The notes below the pieces were generated by a model, which was given only the letters and a program-made list of their open reading frames with translations, searched no databases and was not told the origin of the DNA. Shown here piece by piece: positions 36,724 through 61,712 of a stretch of DNA of 64,000 nt. How positions within the stretch are numbered: the stretch's first letter is position 1; every line of letters begins with the position of its first letter. Where the stretch lies: contig DASPXX010000144.1 in NCBI GenBank assembly GCA_035637095.1, forward strand, positions 7,578-71,577, given 5' to 3'. The translations under genes were made by a program, and so were the position numbers. This DNA comes from Thermoanaerobaculia bacterium. Lineage in GTDB: Bacteria > Acidobacteriota > Thermoanaerobaculia > Multivoradales > UBA5704.

Positions 36724-37071
36724 CTATCCCTGATCAATCCACTCGCCGACCATGGGCTCGCAGAACCTGATCAACTCGGGCACATGGCGCTCGCAGATGT
36801 TCCAGACGACTGCGAAGTCGATCTCATCGTATTCGTGGACCACGAAGTTGCGCAGCGCGATCACCTGCTTCCAGGGGATCTCCGGGTGTTCTGCGCGGAA
36901 TTCCTCAGAGAGCCGCCGGCTGGCCTCGCCGATGATCACCAGTTGGTGGAGTATGGCTGCGCGGAGGAGCTTGCTGCCCAAGAAATCCTCCCGGGTTGCA
37001 CCCTGCCTGAACTCCATGAGGTCGCGAGCCGCGATCAGGATGTCGACGAGGATGCCGATGTCACGATCCAT
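36724..37071 (-). CDS. hepT: HepT-like (DUF86/HEPN) ribonuclease toxin
   Basis: IIGEASRRLS...PEIPWKQVIALRNFVVHEYDEID (RX4HXY). Confidence 0.9.
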   Translation of the reverse strand: MDRDIGILVDILIAARDLMEFRQGATREDFLGSKLLRAAILHQLVIIGEASRRLSEEFRAEHPEIPWKQVIALRNFVVHEYDEIDFAVVWNICERHVPELIRFCEPMVGEWIDQG

Positions 37072-37390
37072 GAACCGTGGTGGCCTCGCGGAGGATGTGC
37101 TGCCGTCGGTACAGGTTGCGACTGTGCTCTACAACCCGCCGATCGAGGACGTCCACCCTGCGGCCGACGAGGCGGGCCAACTCGTCTTTGATCTGGAACC
37201 AGTCCATGCCCGTTGGACCCCCTTCGGGCTCGAAGCTGACCAGGAAGTCAATGTCACTGGAGGTATCGAAGTCTTCGCGCAGGACAGAGCCAAAAACTTC
37301 GAGCCTGGCAATGTGCCACCTTTGGCAGAAGTCTTCCAACACCTCTGGCCCGACCTCCAGCCGCTCGCTGATCTGCGTCTGGGTGGTCAT
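37061..37390 (-). CDS. mntA: MntA-like minimal nucleotidyltransferase antitoxin
   Basis: VFGSVLREDF...SDIDFLV (GSX10DXD), RRVDVL; overlaps the hepT start. Confidence 0.9.
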   Translation of the reverse strand: MTTQTQISERLEVGPEVLEDFCQRWHIARLEVFGSVLREDFDTSSDIDFLVSFEPEGGPTGMDWFQIKDELARLVGRRVDVLDRRVVEHSRNLYRRQHILREATTVHGS

Positions 37391-37773: not shown

Positions 37774-38270
37774 TCCTGAGGCTCGGTAGATCCTACCCGA
37801 CTGTTGGGAGGCTCCTCCCGAGGTCCGGGAGCCTCTTCTCGATCATTGAGACGGTCCTCCCGAGGTCCGGGACGCTCATCCCGACCTACGGGAGGCTCCG
37901 TCCGAACATTGGGACGCTCATCCCGACCATTGGGAGGCTCATCCCCACCATTGGCACGCTCGTCCCAATCATTGGGACGCTTGTCCCGAGGTCCGGGAGG
38001 CTCGTCCCAATGGTTGGGAGGCGCTTCCCAATGGTTGGGAGACGCTTCCCAATGGTTGGGAGAGCCTTCCCAATGGTCGGGACGCTCGTCCCAATGGTCG
38101 GGACGCTCGTCCCAATGTGCGGGTCGCTCGTCCCAATGTGAGGGAGACGCCTCCCAATGTGCGGGAGACTCGCTCCGAGGTCCGGGATGCTCGTCTGAAA
38201 GCACGGATGGACCTTCCGGGGAGTCGGGAGGCTCGTCCCGATGATCGGCGAAGGCTTCCCAAGAGACGCG
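37774..38270. repeat. Strictly phased 21-bp tandem array, ~23 units, consensus TCCC-N7-GGGA-N6
   Basis: Units at 37795, 37816, 37837 ... 38257 with no indels; central units TCCCAA-TGG-TTGGGA. Confidence 0.92.
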
Positions 38271-38878: not shown

Positions 38879-40093
38879 TTACTGGCGCCGCGGCTCCCAG
38901 CGGTGCAGGTGGCGGACCAGGAAGTCGAGCGGGAAGACGTGGGCCGTCCCGTCGTCGCGCCGGAAGACGACCTGGGACCAGCCGCGGACGTTGACCGGCG
39001 TGTACCAGCACCCGCCGAGGTGCAGCTTGTGGCCGGACACGGCGCGGATGAGGACCTGCTCGTAGCGCGAGCGGCTGAGCAGGCGCTCCGGGAAGAGATC
39101 GTCCCAGGTGCACAGCCGCCCGACGTCCTCGTAGGCCTCCGGCCGGTCGGCGAGGTCGAGCAGCGACGGCGCACGGCCGCGCATCACGCCGCCGATGAGA
39201 CGCAGGCTGAACGGACCGGTGAGACGGCGGATCGAAGGCCAGAAGCGGTGGGTGATGGTCCCCGCGAGCTCGCGCATGCTCACCTCGCGTCCGTCGCGGA
39301 GCGGCCACGACGGGTGGTCGACGTCGCAGGTGAACGGGTTCACCGGGAAGCAGTCGAACCGCGCGACCCAACCCTGGCGGCTGGCGTGCTTGACCGGGGC
39401 GAAGCCGGCGACGACCGGGATCTCCATCCGCTCGAGCATGCCCAGGTCATAGGACGGCCAGCGCATCACCGCGCGCACGATGCCGAGGATGAGCGATCCG
39501 GTGGCGATCGAGAGCGCCGGCTCCGGCGTGAAGTCGACGGTCACTTCCAGCCGGTTGCCGCGCGGCCGGACGCCGACGCCGCTCGACGAGCGGCGGTTGG
39601 TGGCCAGGAGCATCACCGGGAAGGGCAGGATGTAGGTGAGCAGCAGCGCGAGCTTGCGCACCGTGCGCTCCCGCCCCTGCTCGGCGAGCGGCAGCTCGAA
39701 GGAGACGTTGTAGTGCATGCTGTAGCCGACCAGCCGCGCCGGCTCACCGCCGCTCTGCTCCCAGGCGTCGAGCTCTCCGCGGACGAAGCGGATCGACTCC
39801 CACAGCTGGCGGCCGGCGCGCGCCGCCGCGCCGCGCTCGATCTCGATCGCCGGCGTCGCCACCTCGATGACGCCGGTGTCGAAGTAGACGGCGGCGCCGG
39901 TCGGCAGGTGGTAGGACGTGCCCTCGCGGTGCATCAGCGCGCCGCGGACGAAGGCGGTGGGAGTGCCGAAAATGTCCTCCGGCTGGCGGCGCCGGCCGGC
40001 GATCCACAGCTCGAGCTCGGCCTCCATGCCGGTGGCGGCGAGCGCCAATGGGACGTCGGGCGCCTCGGCGAGCGCCTTGACCGGACCCTTCAT
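38879..40093 (-). CDS. PafA/Dop (Pup ligase/deamidase)-like carboxylate-amine ligase fold protein
   Basis: GMEAELE, LPTGAAVYFDTGVIEVATP, GYSMHYN and RLEV parallel PafA GIETEFG, LRNGARLYLDVG..EYAT, YGCHENY and RLH; ATGA overlap with the upstream gene. Confidence 0.7.
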   Translation of the reverse strand: MKGPVKALAEAPDVPLALAATGMEAELELWIAGRRRQPEDIFGTPTAFVRGALMHREGTSYHLPTGAAVYFDTGVIEVATPAIEIERGAAARAGRQLWESIRFVRGELDAWEQSGGEPARLVGYSMHYNVSFELPLAEQGRERTVRKLALLLTYILPFPVMLLATNRRSSSGVGVRPRGNRLEVTVDFTPEPALSIATGSLILGIVRAVMRWPSYDLGMLERMEIPVVAGFAPVKHASRQGWVARFDCFPVNPFTCDVDHPSWPLRDGREVSMRELAGTITHRFWPSIRRLTGPFSLRLIGGVMRGRAPSLLDLADRPEAYEDVGRLCTWDDLFPERLLSRSRYEQVLIRAVSGHKLHLGGCWYTPVNVRGWSQVVFRRDDGTAHVFPLDFLVRHLHRWEPRRQ

Positions 40094-40722
40094 GGCGGCT
40101 CGCCTTGCGCAGCGCTGTCGCCGTCCTCCGACCCAGCGCCATGTGGGACCAGGGTGACGAAGCCGAGGTCGAGGTGGATCTGGTCGTCGACGAAGCCGCG
40201 GCCGGTGCCGTAGGGCCGCGCCCGGACGCCGCTCATCGTCTCGCCGGCGATGCGGTTGTAGCGCTCGATCGTCTCCGGCGTGTCGAGCCAGTCGTCGCCG
40301 ATGCGGTAGATGTTGACCGCCGTGCCCCAAGAGTGCGGTGTCGCCACCGTCGACAGCCGGTGCGCCGGCGAGCGGTAGCCGCCGTTGGCGGCGACGTGCA
40401 CGTAGGTGCCGACCGCGGCGCGGAAAGGCTCGAGCGCCGCCGCCATCAGCATCACGGCGCAGGGCGCGTAGCGTGGGAAGGTCCGCAGCAGCTCCGCCTC
40501 GCGGACGTCGACGCCGATCAGCTCCCAGAGCATGAAGTGCGGCGACAGCGGTGTTTCGAGCGCAGTTTTCCAGGAGTCGATCTCATAGAAGAAGCGCGGC
40601 AGCCGTCGCCCGCGGCCTTCGGCGTCGCGCAGGATGCCGCCCGGGCGCAGCGCCTCGCGGTACGCCCGGGCGAGCTGCAGGCCGTCGACGACCGGCAGCG
40701 GCGGTGCTCCCGGCTCAGACAC
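40090..40722 (-). CDS. Peptidase M15A-like (D-Ala-D-Ala carboxypeptidase fold) protein
   Basis: LSPHF..WEL, GGYRS, PHSWGTAVNI and IHLDLG motifs; no signal peptide. Confidence 0.65.
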   Translation of the reverse strand: MSEPGAPPLPVVDGLQLARAYREALRPGGILRDAEGRGRRLPRFFYEIDSWKTALETPLSPHFMLWELIGVDVREAELLRTFPRYAPCAVMLMAAALEPFRAAVGTYVHVAANGGYRSPAHRLSTVATPHSWGTAVNIYRIGDDWLDTPETIERYNRIAGETMSGVRARPYGTGRGFVDDQIHLDLGFVTLVPHGAGSEDGDSAAQGEPP

Positions 40723-41560
40723 GCTCTTCCTCCCAGGCCTGCAGATGCTCGAAGATGCTCTGCGAGATGCCGGCGATCACCTCGCGCCGCCGACCGGCGT
40801 CGGGCGGCCATTGCGTCAGGACCGCCAGCACGTAGGGCTCGCGGTCGGGCAGGAAGACGATCCCGGCGTCGTGGGCGGCGGTCGAGATCTCGCCGGTCTT
40901 GTGCGCCACCCGCGCGCCCTCCGGCAGGCCCGCCGGAATGCCCTTCCTGAACTGCTGCTGGTGCAGGATGTCGAGCATCCGCCGGCTGACGGCCGCCGAC
41001 CAGGCCCGCTCCTCGACGATCAGACGCAGCGCCTGGAGCAGCCCGTTCGCCGTCACCTGGTTGTTGATGCCGGCCTGCCACGCCAGCTCGTCCTCGACCC
41101 CCCGCCGCAGCTCGACGCCATCGAGATGCAGCGGCGCCAGGATGCGCTGCATCTCCTCGAGGCCGATGACGTCGATCAGCAGATTGGTCGCCAGGTTGCT
41201 GCTGGTGGCGATCATGTGGTGCGCCAGCTCCTTGACCTTCATCGTGCGGCCGATCGCCCGCGGCACGTCGGGGTTGGCGTCGCGGCTCGCGTCGATGCGG
41301 AAGCGCGAGCCGTCGGCCAGGCTGAAGAAGCGGTTGCGCACGTGGACCGGGGACTCCTCGCTCAGGAGACCTTCCTGGATTGCTCCGTAGACGCCGAGCA
41401 GCACCGGCACCTTGATGGTGCTGGCGGCGTGGAACCAGAGATCGCCGTGCCAGCTCCAGCCCTGGTGCGTCTCATAGTCGTGGAAGGCGACCCCGACCTG
41501 CTCGGCCCCCGCGTCATGGGCGAGCTTCTCGATCTGCATTCGCAGGCTGCTGACCGTCAT
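40715..41560 (-). CDS. Class A beta-lactamase-like serine hydrolase
   Basis: AASTIK (SxxK), SSN (SxN), HKTG; no signal peptide. Confidence 0.88.
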   Translation of the reverse strand: MTVSSLRMQIEKLAHDAGAEQVGVAFHDYETHQGWSWHGDLWFHAASTIKVPVLLGVYGAIQEGLLSEESPVHVRNRFFSLADGSRFRIDASRDANPDVPRAIGRTMKVKELAHHMIATSSNLATNLLIDVIGLEEMQRILAPLHLDGVELRRGVEDELAWQAGINNQVTANGLLQALRLIVEERAWSAAVSRRMLDILHQQQFRKGIPAGLPEGARVAHKTGEISTAAHDAGIVFLPDREPYVLAVLTQWPPDAGRRREVIAGISQSIFEHLQAWEEERV

Positions 41561-41649
41561 GGGCTCTCCGGCGCCTGGTTCAGTGTCACGGGGGCGTTCC
41601 CTCGCCCGCTCCGCTCCACCCTGCACGTTTGGGGCCGGCGGGACGTGCT

Positions 41650-41678
41650 TTGACAAACCGGAGGCGACCGCTTAGCAT
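41650..41678 (+). promoter_or_regulatory. Sigma70-type promoter of the tRNA-His gene
   Basis: TTGACA (41650-55), 17-bp spacer, TAGCAT (41673-78), 13 bp upstream of the tRNA. Confidence 0.8.
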
Positions 41679-41691
41679 TTTCCGCCTCTGG

Positions 41692-41768
41692 GCCGGTGTA
41701 GCTCAGTTGGTTAGAGCGCCTGACTGTGGATCAGGAGGTCTCCGGTTCAACTCCGGACACCGGTACCA
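41692..41768 (+). tRNA. tRNA-His (GTG), CCA encoded, G1.U72 and A73
   Basis: GCCGGTG-TA-GCTC-AGTTGGTTA-GAGC-G-CCTGA-CTGTGGA-TCAGG-AGGTC-TCCGG-TTCAACT-CCGGA-CACCGGT-A-CCA; anticodon at 41726-41728. Confidence 0.95.
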
Positions 41769-41803
41769 AAACTTTCCTGGCTCGCGGCGTATTATCCTCG
41801 TCG

Positions 41804-42379
41804 ATGACCGTCAAGCTCCGCGCCTGCATGGCACTCATCACCGTGGGTTGGCTCCTGCCAGCTGCGGCCGGCTGCGTTGCACCGAACCCACCGAGCGACA
41901 GCTCTCTCACCCTGACCGCGGCAGGCGAGCCCGGCACCAAGCTGTTGATCAGCGGCACCGTCACCGACCAGAGCGGACGGCCCGTCGCGGGCGCCGGTCT
42001 CCACGTCTATCAGACCGACGCGAGTGGTCGCTACACCCTGGAGAGGTCGATGGATGAGGCTCACGCTCGCCTCTCCGGCCGGATCCGGACAGATGACGGC
42101 GGCCACTTCGTGCTTCGCACGATCCGTCCGGGCGGATACCCCAAGCCACTCAAGCTGGGAGACCGCGAACGGAAGATCCCCGCTCACATTCACATCGACA
42201 TCACCGCTGCCGGACATGCTGAGCGACGCCTTCAAGTCGTGTTTGCCGATGATCCGCTCCTCTCAGACCCGTACTGGACCGATTGGGTGCGGCGCCTGCA
42301 TCAGTCGGTGCTCAAGGTCGACCCGGCCACAGGCGCAGCGAACCTGGTCGTCATCCTCGATCCTCCCGGCAGCGATTGA
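41804..42379 (+). CDS. Intradiol ring-cleavage dioxygenase-like lipoprotein
   Basis: Lipobox-like LLPAAAGC; QTDASGRY, TIRPGGYP and PAHIH carry the expected Tyr/Tyr/His/His ligand positions. Confidence 0.75.
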   Translation: MTVKLRACMALITVGWLLPAAAGCVAPNPPSDSSLTLTAAGEPGTKLLISGTVTDQSGRPVAGAGLHVYQTDASGRYTLERSMDEAHARLSGRIRTDDGGHFVLRTIRPGGYPKPLKLGDRERKIPAHIHIDITAAGHAERRLQVVFADDPLLSDPYWTDWVRRLHQSVLKVDPATGAANLVVILDPPGSD

Positions 42380-42401: not shown

Positions 42402-43766
42402 CTATGCCGATCGCGGCTGAACCTCGAACAGAACGCCTTCGCTGGCGCCTCGGGCGGAATTGATGACTTCATCCCCCATTCCCCGTGGGATCATTCGCAG
42501 GAACCCTCCGCCGTAGCTTTCGCCGAAGCAGAAGGTCCCCCACACCACGTCGTAGTCCCCATATCCCTGCTCCCCGCGCTGGTAGATATAAGGTCTCGAG
42601 TCGACCCGCTCCTGCGCCAACCATTCCCCTTGTGTAACCGCCTCGGCCACGAGCCGCGCCCATACGTCCGGTGGAGTCGATCGCCCGAAGGTCACTCCGC
42701 GACCTTGGTAGCCAAAGGAGGGCTTGAGCACGAAATCCTCGCGATGAGCGAGCAACAGGTCGGGCAGGGATCTCGTGACTCCGCGATAGGTCGCTGCGCC
42801 GGGCCCGACCGCGCGTGTCCAGGGCAGGTATCTCTCGATGACTTCCCGTTCCTCCGCTGTGAACAGAGCGGAATCCGCCCGCTCGGAAAGCAAAGCGAGA
42901 ATCCGCTTGTCGCTGAGAAGCTGGGTGATCGGGCCGTTGTAGAGGCTCAAATGGCCCGCCTTGAAAGACCGGAACACGGCTCGCGGAAGCGCCTCCGAGC
43001 TCATCAGCACGACGGTGTGGATCGGCCGCCCGTCCCGATGCCAGATCTGGTTTTGCAGACCGGATAGATCGGCACAGGAGCAGAGCACCACCTCACCTGT
43101 CAGCCCTGTGCCGCTCGCGCTCAGCAAGTTGCGATAGGTTCGGCTGAGGCTCTCGGCCTCGCCCGGCGGTGGAGCGCTCATGGCGATCGCGATGTTGAGC
43201 ACTCCACTCGCCGCGGTGGGCTGACCGAGGTTGTGGTCGATGATGAACTGCATCATCATCGCCAGAGAGTCCCGGTAGTGCGGGGTGATCCCTTCTTCCT
43301 TGAGGAACCGGGCGATTACTGGGTTGGTCAGAACGCGCTGCTCGAAGTAGCGGTGCTGCCAACCACCGATCATCCCGGCGTTGACCTCCAGGCACTTGAA
43401 GCCGCCAGGTGTATCGATGTAGTCGTTGCGGACCAGCACGGCATCGAGGCCGCTGGGCGGTTCGAGGAGAATGGCGGTCAGCGCCTCGTCCCGGATTCCA
43501 TAGTAGGCAGCTACCCTGCGGGGATCATTTCCGAAGAAACGCTCCGGGATGCTCTTGACCAGACGCGTCAGCTCGATCGTGGCGCGGCGTATTTCGGCGA
43601 GCTTCTCGCCATCCACGAAGGTGGGCCATGATTGCAGCGGGGCGAGGTACGGAGCGGAAGCGAGGTGGTCCAACCGCCGCGTCAGCTCGGGATCGCTGGT
43701 TATGTATTCGAGGAATCGCTGTGCCGCTCGCGAGAGATGGAGTGCAGCTTGGCTCACTGGCTTCAC
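42402..43766 (-). CDS. Circularly permuted ATP-grasp / glutathionylspermidine-synthase-like ligase; start approximate
   Basis: RNDYI...FKCLEVN, FVLKPSFGYQGRGV..G, WLAQERV motifs. The longer ORF-track start at 44357 is antisense to the NRPS remnant. Confidence 0.75.
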   Translation of the reverse strand: MKPVSQAALHLSRAAQRFLEYITSDPELTRRLDHLASAPYLAPLQSWPTFVDGEKLAEIRRATIELTRLVKSIPERFFGNDPRRVAAYYGIRDEALTAILLEPPSGLDAVLVRNDYIDTPGGFKCLEVNAGMIGGWQHRYFEQRVLTNPVIARFLKEEGITPHYRDSLAMMMQFIIDHNLGQPTAASGVLNIAIAMSAPPPGEAESLSRTYRNLLSASGTGLTGEVVLCSCADLSGLQNQIWHRDGRPIHTVVLMSSEALPRAVFRSFKAGHLSLYNGPITQLLSDKRILALLSERADSALFTAEEREVIERYLPWTRAVGPGAATYRGVTRSLPDLLLAHREDFVLKPSFGYQGRGVTFGRSTPPDVWARLVAEAVTQGEWLAQERVDSRPYIYQRGEQGYGDYDVVWGTFCFGESYGGGFLRMIPRGMGDEVINSARGASEGVLFEVQPRSA

Positions 43767-43898
43767 GCGAGACTCCGCTTCAGGTCCTAGGTAGGGCTTA
43801 GTATAGTCGAGGCTACCTTTGGGTGTCGGCCTGGAACGTTGTCTCGGATTGTAGAGGTGTGCCGCACTATCCGTTGGTGGACGGGGTTTCAGGAGGAG

Positions 43899-44721
43899 TT
43901 GCTGAATCTGGACAGTGAACGAGCACGATCGCTGGTTCCGCAGAAGGGGGAGGACCTCCTCGATCTCTTCGCGCGGATCTGCCATGCGGTCCCGGATGCG
44001 CCGGCCGTCGAGGGGAGAGGCACCAGCCTTTCCTACAGGGAGTTGGACCGGACCGCCCGCCGTCTGGCGGCGCGCCTCGCCGCAGCGGGGATCGCCCCGG
44101 CGGACCCGGTCGCTCTCTACTGCCCCGATCCCATCGCCTGGATCGTCTCGATCCTCGCCTGTCTCCGGACGGGCGCGGCGTTCGTACCCCTCGATCCGGA
44201 ATGGCCCGGCGAGCGGCTGCGCGAGGTGCTGGCCGACCTCGCGCCGGCGGCGTTGCTCGCCGATGCGGGCGCGGGAGAGGACGTGGAGGAGCTGGCCCGC
44301 AGACCCCGGGATGCGGCAGCGGCTGGCCGCGATGCCCCGGCCCGAGGTCGTCTTCAACTATCTGGGCCAGCTCGACGCGGCGCTCTCCGCGGAGTCGTGG
44401 CTGCGCCCGGCGCCCGAGTCGCCGGGACCAGGCCGCAGCCCGCGGCAGCCGCGCGCGCACCTCCTGGAGATCAACGCCAGCATCGTCGCAGGGCGGCTGG
44501 AGGCGGTCTGGACCTGGGGCACGGAGATCCACCGGCGCGCCACCGTGGAGCGCCTGGCCGCCGGATTCCTGGCGCGGTTGCGCGAGCTTCTCGCGCTCGG
44601 CCGCTCCGAAGGCGCGGCCGGCTTCACGCCGTCCGACTTTCCCGAGATGGGGTTCGTGCAGGACGATCTGGACGATCTCCTGGCGGACCTCGACCGGACC
44701 ATTCGGGAGGGAGAGCGGTGA
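43899..44721 (+). pseudogene. Chimeric NRPS remnant: adenylation-domain N-terminus joined out of frame to an epimerization-domain C-terminus
   Basis: ~43899-44300 reads KGEDLLDLFARIC...AFVPLDPEWP; ~44299-44721, in another frame, reads PRPEVVFNYLGQLD...LLEINASIVAGRL...GFTPSDFP* and ends in a GTGA overlap with the NRPS start. Confidence 0.75.
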
Positions 44722-47700
44722 CGGGATCGTGCCGGGGCGGTGAGCGCACCCTTGAAGATGTGAGCCTCCAATCGAACCGGCCCGCCGGGCCGTGGACGCT
44801 GGTCGAGCTGCTGGAGAGCCGGGCCGGCATCCACCCGGACCGTGGCTACGAGATCCTGCCGGACGGCGAGCCCGGCGCCGCGCTGCGGCTGACCTATGCC
44901 GAGCTCGCGCACCGGGCGCGCCTCATCGCCGCGCACCTGCGCGAGGCGGGAGCGGCGGGGGAGCGGGTCCTCCTGCTCTTCCCGCCGGGGCTGGACTTCA
45001 TCGCCGGGTTCTTCGGGTGCCTCTACGCCGGGGCGGTGGCCGTGCCGGCCTATCCGCCGCGGCCCAGGCGGAGCGATCCGCGGCTCGCCTCGATCGCGGC
45101 CGACTGCCGTCCGCGGGCGGTCCTGACCATCTCCTCGATCCTGGCCCGCGCGGCGTCCCTGGCGGAGGCGGTGCCGCCGCTCGCCGCGGCCCGCTGGATC
45201 GCCACCGACGAGCTGCCGGACGACGCCGGATCGGACCCCGTCCCGGCGCCGGCCCCCTCGGCGCCCGCCTTCCTCCAGTACACCTCGGGCTCGACCGGCA
45301 CACCCAAGGGCGTCGTGGTGACCCACGCCAACCTGGTGCACAACGAGGAGATGATCCGGCGCGCCTTCCGGCAGTCGGAGAGCTCGGTCGTGGTGGGCTG
45401 GCTGCCGCTCTACCACGACATGGGGCTGATCGGGAACGTGCTGCAGCCCCTGTGGGTGGGGTGCGAGTGCGTGCTGATGCCGCCGGTCGCCTTTCTCCAG
45501 AAGCCGCTGCGCTGGCTCGCGGCGATCGACCGCTGCCGGGCGACGACGAGCGGCGGCCCGAACTTCGCCTACGACCTCTGCGTGCGGAAGATCGCGCCCG
45601 CGGAGCGTGAGACGCTCGACCTCTCGACCTGGGAGGTGGCGTTCAACGGCGCCGAGCCGGTGCGCGCCGAGACGCTGGAGCGCTTCGCCGAGGCGTTCGC
45701 GCCCTGCGGCTTCCGCCGCGAGGCCTTCGTCCCCTGCTATGGCCTGGCCGAGGCGACGCTCCTGGTCACCGCGGCATCGGGCCGAGCGGACCGATCCTCT
45801 CCAGGACCGGTGAGCTGCGGCGCCATTCCCTCGGGCGGCGAGGTCCGGCTGGTCGATCCCGAGTCGGGCTCCGATCTGCCGCCGGGCGAGGTCGGCGAGA
45901 TCTGGGTGGCGGGGCCGAGCGTGGCCGCCGGCTACTGGGACAGGCCGGAGGAGACGGAGCGGATGTTCCGCGCCGCGCTCGCCAGCGGCGAGGGACCCTT
46001 CCTGCGCACCGGAGACCTCGGGTTCCTCTCCGGCGGCGAGCTGTTCGTGGCCGGCCGGCTCAAGGACCTGATCATCCTGCGGGGGCGCAACCACTACCCG
46101 CAGGACGTCGAGCGGACGGCCGAGGCGGGGAGCCCGGCGCTCCGCCCCGGCTGCACGGCGGCGTTCTCCGTGGACGCGGGGGACGAGGAGCGCCTGGTGG
46201 TCGTCGCCGAGGTCGAGCGCCACGCCGATGCCGCGGCGGCCGTGGAGGCGGTCCGCCGGGCGGTCGCCGAGGAGCACGAGGTCCAGGTCCACGAGGTGGT
46301 CCTGGTGCGCACGGGCACAATCCCCAGGACCTCCAGCGGCAAGATCCGCCGCCAGGCCTGCCGGGAGGGCTACCTGGGCGGCGGGCTCTCGGTGGTGACG
46401 CGGGGCGGGGTCGGAGGCGACGACTGGGAGGCCGGCCTGGAGGCGGGGAGCTCCGACCTCCTCGCCTGGCTCCGCGGTGAGATCGCTCGGCTCGTCCGCG
46501 GCCGTCCGGAGAGCGTGGACCCGGCCCTCCCGCTGATCTCCCTGGGTGTCGACTCGCTCGCCGCCGTCGAGCTCCAGCATGCGGTGGAATCGGCCCTGGG
46601 TGTCGCCGTCTCCATGCCCGAGCTGCTGGAGGGCACCACTCTGGCGGAGCTCGCCGGAGTCCTGGAGAAGCGGCTCGCGGAGGTGCCGCGCCGGTGGACA
46701 CAGACCGCCGCGCTCCTGGAAGGAGAGCAGCCGCTATCCTTCGGCCAGCGGGGTCTCTGGTTCCTCCACCGCCTGGCGCCCGAGGAAGGCGCCTACAACC
46801 TGGTGGCCGCGGCGCGCACCGAGGACCTCGATCCGGAGGCGCTGCGCCGCGCCCTCGCCGCGCTCTGCGTGCGCCACGCGTCGCTCCGCTCGGTCTTCGT
46901 CGAGACGGGCGGCGAGCCGGCCCGGCGGGTGCTCGCGGCTCCCGATCTCGATTTCGCCGTCGCGGACGCCCCGGCCTGGGACGAGGCCTGGCGCCCCTTC
47001 GAGCTGGCGGAGCGGCCTCCGGTGCGGGTGCGCCTCTGGCGGTCGTCCGGCGGGTCCGAGGGCGCCTGGATCGTCCTCCTCGCGGTGCACCACCTGGTGG
47101 CCGACTTCTGGTCCCTCGCCCTGATGCTGGAGGAGCTGGGAGCGCTCTACGCGGCGGAGAAGACGGGAGTGCCGGCCGTCCTCCCGGAGCCGGCGGCCGG
47201 CTATGGCGACTACGTCCGCTGGCAGCGCGAGCGGCTGGCCGGCGCCGAGGGGGAGCGTCTCTGGGCCTATTGGCGCGAGCGGCTGGCCGGCGACCTGCCG
47301 CACCTCGATCTCCCCACCGACCGGCCGCGGCCGGCCGTCCAGAGCTTCCGCGGCGTCTCGCGCGCCCGGCTCCTGCCGCCCGATCTGGCCGGCGGCCTGG
47401 AGCGGCTGGGGCGGGAGCGAGGGGCGACCCTGTTCATGGTCCTGGCGACGGCGTTCCACGCCCTGCTGCACCGCGCCTCCGGTCAGGAGACGATCCTGGT
47501 GGGCTCGCCCACGGCGGGCCGCGAGGCGCCGGAGCTGGCCGGCGTGGTCGGCTACTTCGCCAACCCGGTGGTGCTGCGCGCCGACTTCCCCGAGAACGGC
47601 CTCGGCTTCGCCGGCCTGCTGAAGGCCGTGCGGCGCGACGCCCTGGGCGCCTTCGCCCATGCCGCCTTGCCGTTCCCCCTGCTCACCGAGCGGCTGCACC

Positions 47701-50700
47701 CGGAGCGCGACGCCAGCCGCAACCCGCTGTTCCAGGCCATGCTCGTGCTGCAGAAGGCGCACCGGGCCGGCGTGCCGGGCCTCGCCGCGTTCGCCCTGGG
47801 AGAGGAGGGACCCGCGGTGCGCCTGGGTCCGCTGTCCCTCGCCCCGGTGGCGCTCGCCGAGCGCCGCTCGCCGTTCGATCTGATGCTCATGCTCGCCGCG
47901 GTGGACGGCGGTCTGGCCGCCGGGCTCCAGGTCGCGGCCGACCTCTTCGACCCCGCCACCGCGGCCCGCCTCCTCGGGCACTTCGAGGTCCTCCTGCGCG
48001 AGATCGTCGCCGATCCGGAGCAGCGGGTGGAGGAGATCGCGCTGCTCACCGCCGCCGAGCGCGAGGAGGTCCTGGTCCGCTGGAACGATACGGCCCTGGA
48101 CGTGCCGGGAGGCCTGACGCTGGTGGATCTGGTGGAAGCCCAGGCCGAGCGCACACCGGAGGCGCCGGCAGTGATCCACGGCGAAGAGGCGCTGACCTAC
48201 CGGGAGCTGATGGAGCGGGCGGACCAGCTCGCCGCGACTCTCCGGGAGCGGGGCGTGGGTCCCGAGGTGCGGGTCGGCGTCTGCCGGGAGCGCGACCTCG
48301 ATCTGGTGGTGAGTCTGTTCGGCGTGCTCAAGGCCGGCGGCGCCTATGTGCCGCTCGATCCGGCCTACCCGGCCGAGCGGCTGCGGTTCATGACGGAGGA
48401 CTCCGGAGCGCAGGTGATCCTGGATCGGACCGATCGGTCCGATGTCCCGCGCTCGCCCCGCGCCGTGCCGCGGTCGCTCGCCTACCTTATTTATACCTCC
48501 GGTTCCACGGGCCGGCCCAAGGCGGTGGCGATCGAGCACCGCAGCGCGGTGGCGCTGGTGGCGTGGGCGCGGGAGGTGTTCTCCGCCGAAGACCTGGCGG
48601 GCGTGCTCTTCGCCACCTCGGTCTGCTTCGACCTGTCGGTCTTCGAGCTGTTCGTCCCCCTCTCGCTGGGCGGCACGGTGATCCTGGCTCCGGATGCCCT
48701 GGCTCTCCCGGAGCTGCCCGCGGCGGGGCGGGTCACCCTGATCAACACGGTTCCCTCGGCGATGGAGCAGCTGGTGGCGGGTCCGCTGCCGGCGTCGCTG
48801 CGGGTGGTCAACCTGGCGGGCGAGCCCCTCCCGGGCGACCTGGTGCGGCGGATTCACGAGCGGCGGCCGGAGGTGCGGGTCTACAACCTCTACGGTCCCT
48901 CGGAGGACACCACGTATTCGACGGGCGGGCCGGTCCCTCCGGGTGAGCGCGTCCCCTCGATCGGGCGCCCGGTCGCCAACGCGCGGGTCTATCTGCTGGA
49001 CCGGCGGGGCGGTCCGGTGCCGGTGGGCGTACCCGGGGAGCTGTGGATCGGCGGTGCGGGGCTCGCGCGCGGCTATCTGGGGCGGCCGGACCTCACGGCC
49101 GAGCGCTTCCGCCCTGATCCTCTCTCGGGCCGGCCGGGCGAGCGGCTCTACCGCACCGGCGACCTGGCGTGCTGGCGGGCCGGGGGCGAGATCGATTTCC
49201 TGGGCCGCGTCGACCACCAGGTCAAGATCCGCGGCTTCCGCATCGAGCTCGGCGAGGTCGAGGCCGCCCTGCGCGAGCATCCGGCGGTGCGCGAGGCCGT
49301 GGTGGTGGCGCGCGATCACCGAGCGGGCCGGCGGTTGGTGGCCTATGTTGCGGGCGATCTGCCGCCGGCGGGGGTTACGGGCGCGCTTCAGAGCTTCCTG
49401 CGCGAGAGGCTTCCCGCCTCGATGGTGCCGGCGGCGGTGGTGGTGCTCGACGCCCTGCCGCGCACGCCGAACGGCAAGGTGGACCGCAAGGCCCTGCCGG
49501 AGCCCGCCACACCGGACCGGACCGCCGGGTACGCGCCGCCGCGCGATGCGCGGGAGGAGGCCCTGGCCGCGATCTGGGCGCGGACTCTCGGCGTCGAGCA
49601 GGTGGGAATCGGCGACAACTTCTTCGCGCTGGGCGGCGACTCGATCCTCAGCCTGCAGGTGGTGGCCCGCGCCCGCGAGGCCGGGCTGCGGCTGACCGCG
49701 CAGCAGGTGTTCCAGCACCAGACGCTGGCCGAGCTGGCCGCGGCGGCCGGGGAGGGCGCGGCCGTCGCGAGCCAGGCGGAGGTGACCGGCCCGGTGCCGC
49801 TGACGCCGATCCAGCGGTGGTTCTTTTCCCTGGACCCCGAGGAGCCCTGGCATTTCAATCAGGCCGTCCGGGTGCGCGCCCGCCGTGCCCTGGAGCCGCG
49901 GGTCCTGGAGGGAGCCCTGGAGGCCCTGCTCCGGCACCACGACGCCCTGCGCCTCCGCTTCACGCGGGACGCGGACGGCGCTTGGCACCAGGAGGGGGAG
50001 GCCTGGCGCCAGTCCTCGCCGTTGACGGTTGTGGACCTGGCCGCTCTCCCCGGCGCGACGCGGGAGGCGGCGCGCGCCGCGGCGGAGGCCGCGGTCCAGG
50101 CGGGCTTCGACCTGGCGCGCGGGCCGCTCTTCCGCGGTCTCCTGTTCACCGGAGAGGAGACGTCCACCCTTCTCCTCACGGCACATCACCTGGTCGTCGA
50201 CGGCGTCTCCTGGCGCATCCTTCTCGAAGACCTGCACACGGCGTACACCCACCTGAAGCTTCCCGCCAAGACCGCCTCCTTCCGCGAGCACGCCGAACGC
50301 GTGGCGACGCGCGCAGACCTGCCGGTCGCCGAGGGCACCGGCAAGGCCGGCGAGGTCCGGCGTGCGACCTTCACCCTGCCAGCCCCGCGAGGGTCCGGCG
50401 TCGAGCTGGAGGACGCCCTGCTGTCTGCCGTGGTGGAGGCGTTCGCCCGCCGCACGGGAGAGAGCGCGCCGCGTCTCGACCTGGAACGGCATGGCCGCGA
50501 CTCTGATCTGGACCTCTCCCGGACCGTGGGCTGGCTGACCGAGATCCAGGGGGCGGGAGGAGGCGCGGTGGTCGTCAACTATCTGGGGCGCCTCGACGGG
50601 GTCTTCCCGGCGGCGTCGCCGTTCGCCACCGCCGAGATCGCTGACCTGCCGGTGCACGGGCCGCGCAACCGGCGGGGCCATGCCCTGGCGATCGATGCGT

Positions 50701-53700
50701 GGGTGCTGGACGGCGAGCTGACGGTCCGCTGGGAGCACGCGGCGGGACCCGAGGGGGACGCGGCCGTCCGCGAGCTGGCCGAGGCGTGCCTCGACGCGCT
50801 GCGGGAGATCGTGGACCGCGATGCCGGGTTGGAAGACGCCTATTCCGTGACGCCGCTCCAGGCCGGCATCCTGATGCACGCCCTGGCGAGCCCGGGGTCC
50901 GGCGCCTACGTCCAGCAGCTCTCCTGCGCGCTCAGCGGGGAGCTGGACGAAGCCGCCTTCCTTTCCGCCTGGCAGCGGTTGGTGGACCGCCACACGGTCC
51001 TCCGTACCCGCTTCCGGGCGCGCGGGCTGGATGAGCCGGTCCAGGAGGTGCTGCGCGAAGCCCGGCTGCCCGTCGAACGGGAGGATTGGAGCGCCATGGC
51101 ACCCGAGGAGCGCGCGCGGCGGCTCGCGGCCTATCTGGAGGAAGACCGGGCGCGCGGCTTCGCGCTCGATCGGGCGCCTCTCGCACGCCTCTTCCTGGCG
51201 CGCACGAGCGCTGCCTCCTGGCACCTGGTGCTGACCTATCACCATCTGCTGCTCGACGGTTGGTCCCTGGTCCTCCTGCTGGAGGAGCTGCTCTCCGGCG
51301 CTGGCGACACGCCCCCCCCGGCCCCGTTCCGCGAGTACGTCGACTGGCTGCGCCGGTGGGACGGCGCGCCGGCCGAGGCATTCTGGCGGCGGGTGGTGGG
51401 CGACTTTTCCGCTCCCACCCCTCTCGCCGCCGACCGGCCGGTCCCTCCTCCCGAGGAGCGGATGCGGCACGGCGAGGCGCGCGCGCAGCTCCCGGCCGCG
51501 GCCACCGCCGCCCTGGCCGCCGCGGCGCGCCGCCACCAGCTCACGCAAGGCACGCTGGTCGCCGCCGCCTGGGCGCTCCTCCTCGGCCATCTGAGCGGCG
51601 AGGAGGACCTGGTCTTCGGCACCGTGACCTCGGGCCGCTCCGCCGGCCTGCCCGGCATGGAGCGCCGGGTCGGCCTGTTCATCAACACCCTGCCCCTGCG
51701 CCTGCGGGCCGGCCTGGACGCGGCGCTCCTCCCCTGGCTGCGCGACGTCCAGGCGCGGTCGGCCGCGGCGCTGCGCCACGAGCACACACCGCTGGTGGAC
51801 GTCCAGGCCTGGAGCGGCGTGCCGCCCGGCCGGCGGCTGTTCGACAGCATCCTGGCGTTCGAGAACTATCCCGTCGACGCGGCGCTCCACCGGGGGATCG
51901 GCGGCCTGGCGGTCTCCGGCGTCCATTTCGTGGAGCGGATCGACTATCCGACGGCCGTCGTGGTGACCCCCGGCGAGGGCCTGGGGCTCCAGATGATCTA
52001 CGACCGCCGCATGTTCCAACCGGCCACGGTGGCGCGCCGGCTGGAGCAGCTGCGCCGGCTCCTGGAAGGGATCGCGGAGCGGTTGGGCTTCCCCGGCGTC
52101 CGCCTCGGCGACCTCCCCTGGCTGGCCGAGGCCGAGCGGCACCAGATCCTCCTCGAATGGAACGACACGCGCCTTCCGGTGGCCTCCGGGGGGAGGCTGA
52201 TCCACCAGCTCTTCGAGGAGCGGGCCGCGCTCGAACCCGCGGCGGTGGCGGTGGTCTCCGGCGGCGAGGTCCTCACCTACGGCGAGCTCGACCTCCGGGC
52301 CAACCGGCTCGCCCGGCGCCTGCGCGCTTCAGGCGTTGGCCGCGGCTCGCTGGTGGCGGTCCACCTCGGCCGCTCGGCCGGCATGGTGGTGGCGGTGCTG
52401 GGCATCCTCAAGGCCGGCGGCGCCTACGTGCCCGTCGAGGTGACCCTGCCGCCGGTGCGGGTGCGCTGGATCGCCGGTTTCCTGGGCCTCCGCTGGGTGG
52501 TCACCGAGACCGCCCGCCTGGACGCCCTGCGCGCCGCGCTCGGCGATCCGGATCTCCCGCACCTGGTCGCCGTGGATCGCGAGACGCCGGATGTCTCCGA
52601 GGCGCCCCTCGCTCCCGTCGCCGCGCCGGACGACCTCGCCTACATCATCTTCACCTCGGGCTCCACCGGCACGCCCAAGGGCGTCATGGTTCAGCACCGC
52701 CCCGTGCTCAACCTGATCGAGTGGGTCAACGGCACGTTCGGCGTCGGCCCGGACGACCGGGTGCTGTTCATCACCGCGCTCAGCTTCGACCTCTCGGTCT
52801 ACGACATCTTCGGCCTGCTCGCCGCGGGAGGGTCGATCCACGTCGCCGCGGAGCGCGATGTGCGGGAACCGGCGCGCCTGGTGCGGCTCCTGGCCGGGGA
52901 GCCGGTCACCTTCTGGGATTCGGCGCCCGCCGCCCTGCAGCAGCTCGTGCCGTTCCTGCCGGCGGAGCCCCAGGAGGCGGCGAGGCTCCGGCTGGCCTTC
53001 CTCTCGGGTGACTGGATCCCCTTGGGGCTCAAGGACGAGGTGGCCGCCGCCTTCCCGCGGGTCCGCTGCGTTGGCCTGGGCGGCGCCACCGAGGCCACCG
53101 TCTGGTCCAACGTCCACCGCATCGAGACGGTCGAGCGCGAGTGGCGGAGCATCCCCTACGGCCGGCCGATCCGCAACGCGCGCTACCACGTGCTCGACGC
53201 GGCCATCGAGCCGGTGGCCGTGGGGGTGGCCGGCGACCTCTACATCGGCGGCCCCGTGCTCGCCCGGGGGTACGCCGGCGAGCCGGAGCTCACCGCCGGC
53301 AAATTCGTCCCCGACCCATTCGCGGACGAGCCGGGCGCCGTCCTCTACCGCACGGGCGACCGGGCGCGCTACTTCGCGGACGGCAAGCTGGAGTTCCTCG
53401 GGAGGCTGGACCATCAGGTCAAGATCCGCGGGTTCCGCATCGAGCTGGGGGAGATCGAGGCGGCCCTGGGCGATCACCCCGGGGTCCGGGAGGCCCTGGT
53501 CCTGGTGCGCGAGGACACGCCGGGGGATCGCCGGCTGGTGGCCTACGTGGTGCCGGCGGCCGGGCCGGCTCCAGATCCGCGGGAGCTGCGCACCTGGGTG
53601 GCGGACCGCCTCCCCGCCTACATGGTGCCCGCGGCCTGCGTCGTCCTCGACGCCCTGCCGGTCACGGCCAACGGCAAGGTGGACCGCAAGGCCCTGCCGA

Positions 53701-56700
53701 CGCCGGAGAGCGCGGGCGCCGCGGCAACGGTGGAGGAGCGGCCGGCCTCGCTCGTCGAGGAGCTGGTGGCCGCCCAGTGGGCGCAGGTGCTGCACCTTCC
53801 CGATCCCGCGGCCGTCTCCCTCGACCAGAGCTTCTTCGAGCTGGGCGGGCAGTCTCTCCTCGCCACCCGGCTGGTGGCGCGTCTGCGCGAGGCGCTGGAC
53901 GTCGAGCTGTCGCTCCAGGACCTCTTCGAGGCGCCCACGGTGGCCGGGCTCGCCGAGCGGGTGGAGGCCGCGCTGCGCGGCGGCCAAGCGGGGGCTCCCA
54001 TCGAGCGGATCCCCCGCGACGGCGACCTTCCCCTCTCCTCCGGCCAGCAGCGGCTCTGGTTCCTCGACCGCCTGGAGCCGGGTACCGCGACCTGGAACAT
54101 CCCGGCCGCGGTACGCCTGCGCGGCGACCTCGACGTCGCGGCCCTGACGGCGGCCCTGCGCGCCGTGGTCGCCCGCCACGAGGCGCTGCGCACCACGTTC
54201 ACCGCGGTGGGGGAGCTGGCCGTGCAGGTCATCGCGCCGGCCCTGGAGCTGGCTGTGCCGCGCGTCGATCTGGCGGCCCTGCCCGCGGCAATCCGCGACG
54301 CCGAGGCGCTCCGGCTCGCCGCCGCGGAGGCGGGGCGGCCGTTCGACCTGGCTGCCGGGCCGCTCGTCCGCATGACCCTGGTGCGGACGGAGAGCTGCGA
54401 GCATCTGGCGCTCGTCACCCTGCACCACATCATCGCGGACGGCGCCTCGGTGGAGGTCTTGCTGCGCGAGCTGGCCGCCCTCTACCCGGACGGCAAGTCG
54501 ACCGCGCTGCCCGAGCTGCCCATCCAGCCCGTGGACGTCGCGGCCTGGCAGGCGGCGCACCTGGCCTCCGTGGCGGAGGCGCGGCTCGCCTGGTGGCGCG
54601 AGCGTCTGGACGGCGCGCCGCCGCTCCTCGAGCTCCCCACGGACCGTCCGCGGCCGGCCCTCCAGAGCTTCCGCGGCGCCTCGCGCTCCTCCCTCCTGCC
54701 GCCCGCCCTGGCTGCCGGGGTCCGCGAGCTGGCGCTCGGCGAGAGCGCAACCCCGTACATGGTGCTCCTCGCCGCCTTCGCCGCCCTGCTCGGGCGCGAC
54801 TCCGGCCAGGACGACCTGCTGATCGGTACGCCGGCGGCCAACCGCCAGAGGATTGAGATCGAGCCGCTCATCGGGTTCTTCGTCAACACCCTGGTGGTGC
54901 GGGCCGCGGTGCCGCGCGCGGACGGCTTCCGCGCGCTGCTCAAACGCGTCCGCGCCGCCGCCCTGGGCGCCTGGGCGCACCAGGACCTCCCCTTTGAGCG
55001 GATCGTCGAGGAGCTGCGGCCGGAGCGCAGCCTGGGCCACCACCCTCTCTTCCAGGTGATGTTCACCCTGGAGCGGGACCCGGAGCGCATCCTGGAGCTC
55101 CCCGGCCTCGCCCTGAGCCTTCTCTCCACGGGTGTGGTCGCCGGCAAGTTCGATCTGGCGCTCTCCCTGTTCGAGACGTCCGCAGGCCTGCGCGCCGTGG
55201 TGGACTACCGGACCGACCTCTTCGACGGCGTCACGATCGACCGCCTGCTCGGCCGTTTCGAGCGGCTCCTCGCAGCCGCGCTGTCCGGTCCGGAGCGGCC
55301 GCTGGCGAGCCTCGATCTCCTCGCCGCGGGGGAGCGGCAGCAGCTTCTCGAATGGAGCGAGGGGCCGCCTCTGCCCGCGGCGGGGCTCGCCCACCGGCTC
55401 GTCGAGGAAAGCGCCGGCCGGGCGTCCGGCCGCGTGGCCCTGGTCTGCGGCGCGGAGGAGATCACCTACGGCGAGCTGGAGGCGCGGGCGAACCGGCTGG
55501 CCCGCCTCCTCCGCCGTCTGGGCGCGGCGTCCGGCGCGCGGGTCGGCGTGTCCCTCGGCCGGACGGTGTGGCTGCCGGTCTCGGTGCTGGCCGTCTTCAA
55601 GGCGGGGGGCGTCTGGGTGCCGCTGGACCCGGCGAGCCCGCCGGCGCGGCGGCGCTTCGTGGCCGAGGATGCGGGCGTCTCCTTCGTCCTCACCGACGAG
55701 CGCCTGCGGGAGCTGGAGGGGGAGATCGCGGCCGAGAGCCCGGCGCCGCTGGCGACCGGGCCGCGGGCCGGCGATCTGGCCTACCTCATCTACACCTCCG
55801 GATCGACCGGCCGGCCCAAAGGGGTGGCGGTGGAGCACGGCAGCCTGGCGGCCCTCCTCGGCGCCTGCCGTGCCGGGCTCGGCTGGACGGCGGACGACCG
55901 CCTGCCGTGCGTCGCGCCGTACTCGTTCGACATCTTCCTGTTCGAGCTCCTCGCGCCGCTCGCCGCGGGCGGCACCGTGGAGCTCCTGGAGACCCGTCCG
56001 GCGCTGGACCTGCGCGATCTCCTGGCGGCCCTCGCGCGGGCCACCCGGATGCACGCGGTGCCTGCGCTCATGCGCCAGGTCGTCGACGCCGCGGCCGAGG
56101 CGCCCGCCGGCCGCTTCGCCGCGCTGCGCACCCTGTGCGTGGGCGGCGACCGCGTGCCCCCCGAGCTGCTGGCCGACATGGCCCGGGTCTTCCCGCGGGC
56201 GGAGGTCCGGGTGCTCTACGGTCCCACCGAGGCCACGGTCCTCTGCGCCAGCCACCGTGCGGGCTCCTCCGCGGGTTCTTCCGCGGTATGGGACGAGCGG
56301 GCGTGGATCGGTCGGCCGCTGCCGGGGATGGCGCTGCGGCTGTGCGATGCGGACGGGGAGCCGGTCCCGATCGGCATCCCCGGCGAGATCTGGATCGGCG
56401 GCCCGGGGGTGGCCCGCGGCTACTGGAACCGTCCGGATCTCACGGCCGGGCGCTTCGTGGCGGCGGACGGCGGGCGCTGGGTGCGCAGCGGCGACCGGGC
56501 GCGCCGCCTGGCCGACGGCGCGCTGGAGTTCCTCGGCCGGGTGGACGAGCAGGTGAAGGTGCGCGGGTTCCGCGTCGATCCGCGAGAGATCGAGGCCGTG
56601 CTGCGCGAGCACCCGTTGGTCTTCGAGGCGGCGGTGCAGGCCGTCCCTGATGGCGCGGACGACCGCCGCCTGGTGGCCTGGGTGGTGGCGGAGGAGACGG

Positions 56701-61706: not shown

Positions 61707-61712
61707 CGCGGC

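Follow-up and report, generated by a model that had tools for sequence, protein, structure and literature searches.

A PafA/Dop-like fold in a conserved three-gene cassette with two cell-wall-type hydrolase folds in soil bacteria

The locus and its three proteins

The DNA considered here, which we call the window, is a stretch of 64,000 nucleotides from a Thermoanaerobaculia bacterium of the phylum Acidobacteriota (assembly GCA_035637095.1, contig DASPXX010000144.1, positions 7,578 to 71,577 of the forward strand). Our subject is a cassette of three genes on its minus strand, at 38879-41560, encoding a serine hydrolase, a protein resembling the LAS/M15 metallopeptidases and a protein whose predicted fold is nearest to that of PafA and Dop. 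The three frames have a high guanine-plus-cytosine (GC) content at third codon positions and overlap at their stop and start codons. Both the coordinates and the three overlapping genes match exactly the operon that a first-pass annotation, made from the letters of the window, had proposed, and its further claim that none of the three proteins carries a signal peptide was borne out. The genes and the spacer upstream of them are as follows.

40715..41560, minus strand: gene 1, ATG start at 41560, 281 amino acids, a size as in its relatives; a serine hydrolase like PBP-A and the class A beta-lactamases
40090..40722, minus strand: gene 2, GTG start, 210 amino acids; an LAS/M15-like protein with Asn137 in place of the Asp metal ligand
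38879..40093, minus strand: gene 3, ATG start, 404 amino acids; a protein of predicted carboxylate-amine-ligase fold (PafA/Dop/GCS2-like), uncatalogued
41561..41691: upstream spacer of 131 bp between gene 1 and a divergent tRNA-His gene

The GTG of gene 2 falls within the final codons of gene 1 and overlaps the gene 1 stop by 8 nucleotides, and the ATG of gene 3 shares bases with the TGA of gene 2 (an ATGA overlap). The three genes are translationally coupled; we infer from the overlapping codons that they are also transcribed together. The 131-bp spacer is presumed to be the promoter region of the cassette. A promoter scan of the minus strand of this spacer found no sigma-70-like site, and the sole promoter-like match within it is a sigma-70-like one on the plus strand at 41650-41678, facing tRNA-His.

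Gene 3 is the protein that makes the cassette unusual. Single-sequence and profile searches returned no match to it in Pfam, NCBIfam or PDB, and its close homologues, more than 3600 in number, are all unnamed or hypothetical. An exhaustive search yielded no more than 360 clusters at 50% identity, which marks the family as compact and isolated, and sequence identity within it is 63-68% between phyla. The AlphaFold model is confident, with a predicted local distance difference test score (pLDDT) of 89.7 and a predicted template modeling score (pTM) of 0.90. When this model was compared with PDB by Foldseek, all 13 matches at E <=0.001 were to PafA, Dop or YbdK/GCS2, at template modeling (TM) scores of 0.35-0.50, which agrees with the PafA/glutamine synthetase (GS) fold anticipated in the first-pass annotation. 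Among the 13, PafA and Dop span E values from 1.7e-9 to 5.8e-4 and YbdK/GCS2 from 1.6e-5 to 1.1e-4; the first nine are all PafA or Dop (E 1.7e-9 to 5.6e-6). Based on the modeled structure, gene 3 is predicted to be a new family in the carboxylate-amine ligase superfamily, structurally nearest PafA/Dop.

The conserved residues of gene 3 are consistent with this placement. In an alignment of 24 sequences, the invariant positions are G22-x-E24-x-E26 (the GhExE motif, here GMEAE), Y70-x-D72, E77, H127/N129, R176/R178/R181 and E183, and they sit in motifs that serve at the active site in PafA, Dop and GS. In this superfamily, the motif GhExE binds ATP (PMC7947786); it is present, as is Y70-F-D72, in at least 134 of 145 relatives. 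Further along, gene 3 reads R181-L-E183-V-T185-V-D187 (R-x-E-x-T-x-D) against R207-x-H209-x-I211-x-G213-D214 in PafA/Dop, a correspondence drawn by motif order; the gene 3 version is of the GS/GCS2 type and not the R-x-H-x-I-x-G-D of PafA/Dop, whose His is the phosphate-contacting H241 of Dop (PMC8599861). The residue matches between gene 3 and PafA, Dop or GS come from motif order and one short hhalign segment, not from structural superposition. That segment aligned the Y-F-D of gene 3 with the Y-V-D of PafA/Dop, in a comparison of the gene 3 family with real Acidobacteriota PafA/Dop that reached only 3.9% probability, and the Pup_ligase hidden Markov model (PF03136) matched neither gene 3 nor 24 of its relatives, even at E up to 10. 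Gene 3 is outside the Pup_ligase Pfam family, and its likeness to that family is one of fold and motifs only. The earlier statement that gene 3 keeps the PafA/Dop motifs, including the YxD Asp, holds with a qualification: GhExE and Y-x-D are kept, but E183 stands where PafA and Dop have His, and PF03136 does not match.

The assignment of gene 1 is more conventional. It matches Pfam Beta-lactamase2 (PF13354) at E 2.6e-48 and 164.7 bits, for a cut-off of 22, and its score of 110 bits against NCBIfam bla_class_A (NF033103) falls short of the curated equivalog cut-off of 200; gene 1 therefore does not count as a curated class A beta-lactamase. The closest solved structure is PBP-A TLL2115 (2j7v; E 4.6e-21), with SxxK, SxN and KTG aligned. 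Across 49 relatives, S47-T-I-K50, S120-S-N122 and K221-T-G223 are at least 95% conserved, which confirms the SxxK/SxN/KTG serine hydrolase called in the first pass, and the N termini are hydrophilic and without a signal peptide. Based on the conserved motifs, the hydrophilic N termini and PBP-A as the nearest structure, gene 1 is probably an active, cytoplasmic, PBP-like hydrolase rather than a secreted beta-lactamase.

Gene 2 is more diverged. Single-sequence and profile searches gave nothing above threshold in Pfam, NCBIfam or PDB, and in 9 of 24 relatives PF08291 (Peptidase_M15_3) appears below threshold at the same position (13-15 bits, for a cut-off of 23.2). When the family was compared by hhalign with an alignment of true M15_3/DUF882 proteins collected from related genomes, it matched at 95.2% probability (E 2.8e-8, 137 columns), with the motifs SPHF..E(F/L), GYRxP, HxxGxAx(D->N137) and H183-x-D185 aligned; this argues that gene 2 is homologous to the LAS/M15 metallopeptidases. 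In the His-Asp-His zinc triad of these enzymes, gene 2 keeps H130 and H183 and has Asn137 at the Asp position. The annotated M15-like protein with Asn for Asp (HSWGTAVNI) was thus read correctly, and the feature extends well beyond this genome: in 116 of 118 relatives the Asp ligand position is taken by Asn, and the D-x-x-H-x-D motif is conserved. The alignments indicate that Asn for Asp is a hallmark of the gene 2 family, and a near-universal switch of this kind at the metal site of an LAS fold is an enzymological question in its own right. The AlphaFold model of gene 2 is moderate (pLDDT 72.9), with a poorly modeled active-site loop (<50), and a Foldseek search with it against PDB and BFVD gave no significant match, the Hedgehog N-domain scoring E 2.1 and a phage "Peptidase" E 0.088, with that loop poorly predicted.

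Conservation, distribution and surroundings of the cassette

Related loci numbered 84, of which 4 came from metagenome or genome contigs and 80 from species-representative genomes. The order and strand of the trio are identical in 81/81 loci that reach upstream of the ligase-like gene (the other three end at contig ends), and these 81 span Thermoanaerobaculia, Blastocatellia, Gemmatimonadaceae and Longimicrobiales. The association of the three genes is far beyond chance, and a survey for conserved triplets, which had been suggested as a check on the operon, thus came out in its favor. Among the genes flanking the 84 loci, no gene cluster besides the trio is common across lineages, and no conserved small open reading frame (ORF) accompanies it. 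Longer homologues that looked like fusions (P0136, P0214 and others) were considered as evidence for a functional link and rejected, as they are frameshifted read-throughs from poor assemblies.

Conserved as it is in composition, the cassette is an accessory trait of a minority of soil bacteria. It was found in 3 of 41 relatives searched (this genome, one of five same-genus genomes and one other) and in 4 of 81 evenly sampled Gemmatimonadota genomes; the idea that it is housekeeping in Gemmatimonadota was rejected on that last count. In the tree of the ligase-like protein, the Thermoanaerobaculia copies form one clade (100/100) and the Gemmatimonadota part largely follows families; the Blastocatellia copy (L068) is nested among Longimicrobia copies, which implies at least one transfer across phyla. 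Flanks differ among the six Thermoanaerobaculia copies, three of which lie beside a tRNA gene. In a same-genus genome without the cassette, only the ATP-binding cassette (ABC) exporter gene of the region is recognizable, and for this reason no empty site can be defined.

In the window, tRNA-His flanks the cassette on one side; on the other lie a lower-GC stretch with an array of 21-bp repeats and a HepT/MNT gene pair. The surrounding features are the following.

36724-37390, minus strand: overlapping genes for a HepT-like RNase (PF01934) and a nucleotidyltransferase (PF01909), a HEPN/MNT-type toxin-antitoxin pair
37791-38195: about 15-19 imperfect 21-bp tandem repeats in a lower-GC stretch directly downstream of the cassette
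41692-41768, plus strand: tRNA-His (GTG), 131 bp upstream of the cassette and divergent from it
41726-42379, plus strand: small protein with an intradiol-dioxygenase C-terminal domain (PF00775) and a CarboxypepD_reg-like part, with a hydrophobic N terminus, immediately after tRNA-His
42402-44357, minus strand: long ORF of 469 amino acids from an internal start, up to 651 amino acids, in a lower-GC segment (0.63), diverging from the giant gene that follows
43839-61706, plus strand: nonribosomal peptide synthetase (NRPS), a single frame of 5955 amino acids, GC about 0.75
61707-62834, plus strand: luciferase-like monooxygenase gene (PF00296), after the NRPS

Several side observations belong here. 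The HEPN/MNT-type pair is located between the ABC exporter gene and the cassette. The repeat array can also be read with periods of 42 or 63 bp, and long repetitive ORFs run through it on both strands. For two further Thermoanaerobaculia copies, the nearby tRNA gene is a tRNA-Leu, at a distance of about 1.1 kb. The ORF at 42402-44357 had no match in sequence searches of Pfam, NCBIfam or PDB; by eye it resembles ATP-grasp/glutathionylspermidine-synthase-like proteins, a resemblance that is unconfirmed. A functional link between the cassette and the NRPS was considered and rejected, since the NRPS does not recur at other loci.

What the cassette may do

Neighbors that bear on function recur in Gemmatimonadota, and they point to cell-wall peptides. 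In Escherichia coli, murein peptides are salvaged and catabolized by import through MppA/Opp and by the enzymes LdcA, Mpl (the murein tripeptide ligase) and MpaA. A bona fide mpl gene (TIGR01081, 464 bits for a cut-off of 388.7) lies in the fetched flanks of 39 of the 84 loci, all 39 in Gemmatimonadota. Of the 54 loci whose downstream sequence extends for 3 kb or more, 28 have it convergent and downstream, directly after the ligase-like gene or after a DUF1697 gene. A second arrangement, which characterizes a separate clade of seven loci, places it divergently, about 115 bp upstream of gene 1; the adjacency thus occurs in at least two orientations. In the main Gemmatimonadaceae clade, genes for an Opp/Dpp-type binding protein and for a permease also stand immediately upstream, on the strand of the cassette. 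Across the 81 sampled Gemmatimonadota, with genes called Mpl or Mpl-like at E of 1e-100 or better, such a gene was found in six genomes, comprising 4/4 with the cassette and 2/77 without it (Fisher p = 9e-6, uncorrected for phylogeny). Every cassette-bearing genome tested (12/12) has an Mpl or Mpl-like gene; that of the present genome is on another contig and scores 344 bits, below the cut-off of 388.7.

Two side observations concern these neighborhoods. The DUF1697 gene (PF08002) stands between the ligase-like gene and mpl at locus L036 (7222-7863) and at 23 other Gemmatimonadaceae loci, and in that clade it might belong to the same module. In a Gemmatimonadota genome without the cassette (G104, C1:3232782-3234637), mpl adjoins an S66 (LdcA-type) peptidase gene, the classical pairing, unlike the pairing of mpl and cassette elsewhere in the phylum.

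In total, the observations outlined above lead us to propose, at a probability of roughly 0.45, that the cassette is an undescribed cytoplasmic operon whose products would trim D-amino-acid peptides of the murein type and, by acyl-phosphate chemistry, form or break a single amide bond, with both the substrate and the direction of the reaction deduced from context. The substrates would be D-amino-acid peptides, most likely peptidoglycan stem peptides or their fragments, that are imported into or released in the cytoplasm. We posit that gene 1, as its family suggests, would remove or cleave at a C-terminal D-Ala-D-Ala-type bond, and that gene 2, with His-Asn-His for His-Asp-His, would cleave another bond beside a D-center or at least bind such a peptide. 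Gene 3 would then, using ATP or, like Dop, ADP and Pi, activate a carboxylate or amide, for example the gamma-carboxyl of D-Glu, after which one amide bond would be formed or hydrolyzed. In this model, the product would pass to Mpl or to catabolism, and the cassette would be an accessory addition to the usual LdcA/Mpl route, adding a step to it and not replacing it. The broad first-pass inference, that the cassette is a cytoplasmic system of ligase and hydrolases with a substrate other than Pup, holds up, given the fold, the conserved triplet and the fact that no Pup was found in the genomes tested; among the options it named for that substrate, cell-wall peptides have drawn the most support, from the mpl and opp neighbors.

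Several observations weigh against this proposal. In the order to which the window belongs, 38 of 41 genomes have an Mpl-like gene (315-368 bits) and only 3 have the cassette, and co-occurrence at that level is therefore hardly informative. Near the cassette in the window, and at the other Thermoanaerobaculia and Blastocatellia loci, neither mpl nor opp nor any further cell-wall gene was found, and the association with Mpl in Gemmatimonadota may be partly a matter of shared ancestry, since the tree of the ligase-like protein largely follows taxonomy within that phylum. Of 22 genomes tested, 20 have LdcA-type S66 peptidases, whether they carry the cassette or not, which leaves no obvious missing step for the cassette to supply; on the same grounds we rejected the idea that it replaces LdcA. 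On the enzyme side, the Asn at its metal site means that the M15-like protein may not be a normal zinc peptidase, and a ligase and a Dop-like amidase are not separable from the sequence of gene 3.

The proposal has a bolder form, which we offer as a speculation that may well be wrong: gene 3 would found a new branch of the GS/PafA-Dop superfamily, with acyl-phosphate chemistry, driven by ATP or phosphate, directed at the gamma-D-glutamyl position of stem peptides that are free in the cell. Its reaction would either restore the bond between gamma-D-Glu and meso-diaminopimelate from fragments, as a substrate for Mpl, or cleave or deamidate that protease-resistant bond in the manner of Dop, with genes 1 and 2 preparing the peptide. 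If this were true, murein peptides would be processed in the cytoplasm in a third way, besides LdcA/Mpl and MpaA, and an enzyme like PafA/Dop would for the first time have a role with small molecules.

Is the substrate necessarily a piece of the cell's own wall? The cassette could instead degrade or detoxify other D-amino-acid or gamma-linked peptides from the environment, such as nonribosomal peptide antibiotics, beta-lactam-type or glutamate-analogue inhibitors or peptides from necromass, with no specific tie to the wall of its host; its spread as an accessory trait would follow. In favor of this, the cassette is patchy (3/41 relatives, 4/81 Gemmatimonadota), has crossed phyla (the Blastocatellia copy within Longimicrobia), has variable flanks in Thermoanaerobaculia with 3/6 copies beside tRNA genes, and is missing from a same-genus genome that has only the ABC exporter gene in common with the region. 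The peptide-type binding protein and permease upstream in one clade would serve this function as well, and antibiotics are also substrates of both hydrolase folds. Against it, an identity of 63-68% between phyla and a fixed composition argue for one defined, common substrate, and the repeated adjacency of mpl in different orientations points to murein peptides specifically. The serine hydrolase scores well below the beta-lactamase cut-off and is closest to PBP-A, and the NRPS of the window was not seen at other cassette loci. On balance we consider scavenging or detoxification of this sort unlikely.

Could the cassette be biosynthetic, with a GS-fold enzyme that makes a small gamma-glutamyl-type amide (cf. 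the GCS2/EgtA-like ligases) and hydrolases that mature or recycle the product? The second tier of gene 3 structure matches (YbdK/GCS2, E 1.6e-5 to 1e-4) and the R-x-E-x-T-x-D motif, of GS/GCS2 rather than PafA/Dop type, would fit such an enzyme, and ligation is the usual direction in the superfamily (PMC7947786). The make-up of the cassette would be odd, however, since both partners of gene 3 are of peptidase type and no further gene for biosynthesis is present; neither an exporter nor a tailoring gene is conserved with the trio, and gene 3 has no Pfam GCS2 match. We regard this explanation as quite improbable.

The structural likeness to PafA and Dop also raises the question of a protein tag. 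In this genome, which is 82% complete, no Pup, Pup_ligase (PafA/Dop), proteasome-family or Mpa gene was found, in keeping with the first-pass remark that the ligase-like gene has no Pup or proteasome beside it, and Pup gave no match above cut-off in 11 cassette-bearing genomes (this one and ten others). The search readily detected genuine PafA/Dop pairs (PF03136, 290-539 bits) in 15 of 301 sampled Acidobacteriota and would therefore have picked up such a pair in this genome. Pup-type systems do exist in the phylum, though none was found in this genome, and some of the Acidobacteriota PafA/Dop copies (loci L085-L096) have a Dop-loop-like insert. That gene 3 attaches or removes an unrecognized Pup- or UBact-like modifier encoded elsewhere, as its closest structural relatives and the aligned YxD catalytic-Asp motif might suggest, is very improbable given these searches, the ease with which real PafA/Dop pairs are detected, the lack of a conserved small ORF with the trio and partners that are peptidoglycan-type peptidases.

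To our knowledge, PafA and Dop have been known only for attaching and removing the Pup tag, in Actinobacteria and a few other phyla, and we found no published description of the cassette or of a PafA/Dop-like enzyme in such a context. A relative of the PafA/Dop fold with an intact-looking active site, tied to two cell-wall-type peptidases in Gram-negative soil phyla, would point to wider uses of their chemistry. Should the link to Mpl prove real, the cassette would be a hitherto unrecognized branch of the salvage or scavenging of peptidoglycan peptides, in soil bacteria that are abundant but poorly cultured. The proposal of murein-peptide processing is also directly testable, as the cassette encodes three small soluble proteins and the candidate substrates are defined peptides.

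Comparison with known systems

The nearest relatives of gene 3 by structure are PafA and Dop (PF03136; 4bjr, 7oyh, 5lrt and 4b0r), which gave the best matches at E 1.7e-9 to 4e-8, probability 1.00 and TM 0.42-0.50. Gene 3 has in common with them GhExE, Tyr-x-Asp and then a Glu on the next strand, and by analogy it would use acyl-phosphate chemistry on a carboxylate or amide. Unlike Dop, it has no Dop-loop that we could see, and unlike either enzyme it has two peptidases as its partners. The GCS2/YbdK proteins (1r8g, 1tt4) follow at E 1.6e-5 to 1e-4 and TM up to 0.48 on the target; they are of similar size and have an R-x-E-x-x-x-D motif of the GS/GCS2 type. Gene 3 differs from them in its lack of a Pfam or NCBIfam match, in its operon context and in a conserved C-terminal half with motifs of its own, beyond the YbdK match.

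The partners of gene 3 also have known counterparts. PBP-A of Thermosynechococcus (TLL2115, 2j7v), a DD-peptidase related to class A beta-lactamases, belongs to the same Pfam Beta-lactamase2 family as gene 1; unlike PBP-A, gene 1 has no signal peptide, is predicted to be cytoplasmic and always stands in an operon with M15-like and ligase-like genes. Gene 2 aligns with the LAS-type M15 peptidases (PF08291, of the DUF882/YcbK-MepK type) at the GYRxP, HxxGxAx(D) and HxD motifs, and differs from them in having Asn for Asp, in scoring below the gathering threshold and in lacking a signal peptide. At the level of the whole pathway, the Gemmatimonadota cluster, in which mpl joins genes for a peptide-binding protein, a permease and cytoplasmic peptidases, recalls the logic of mppA-mpaA and ldcA/mpl in E. 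coli, but the enzymes of the cassette are not homologous to LdcA (S66) or MpaA (M14).

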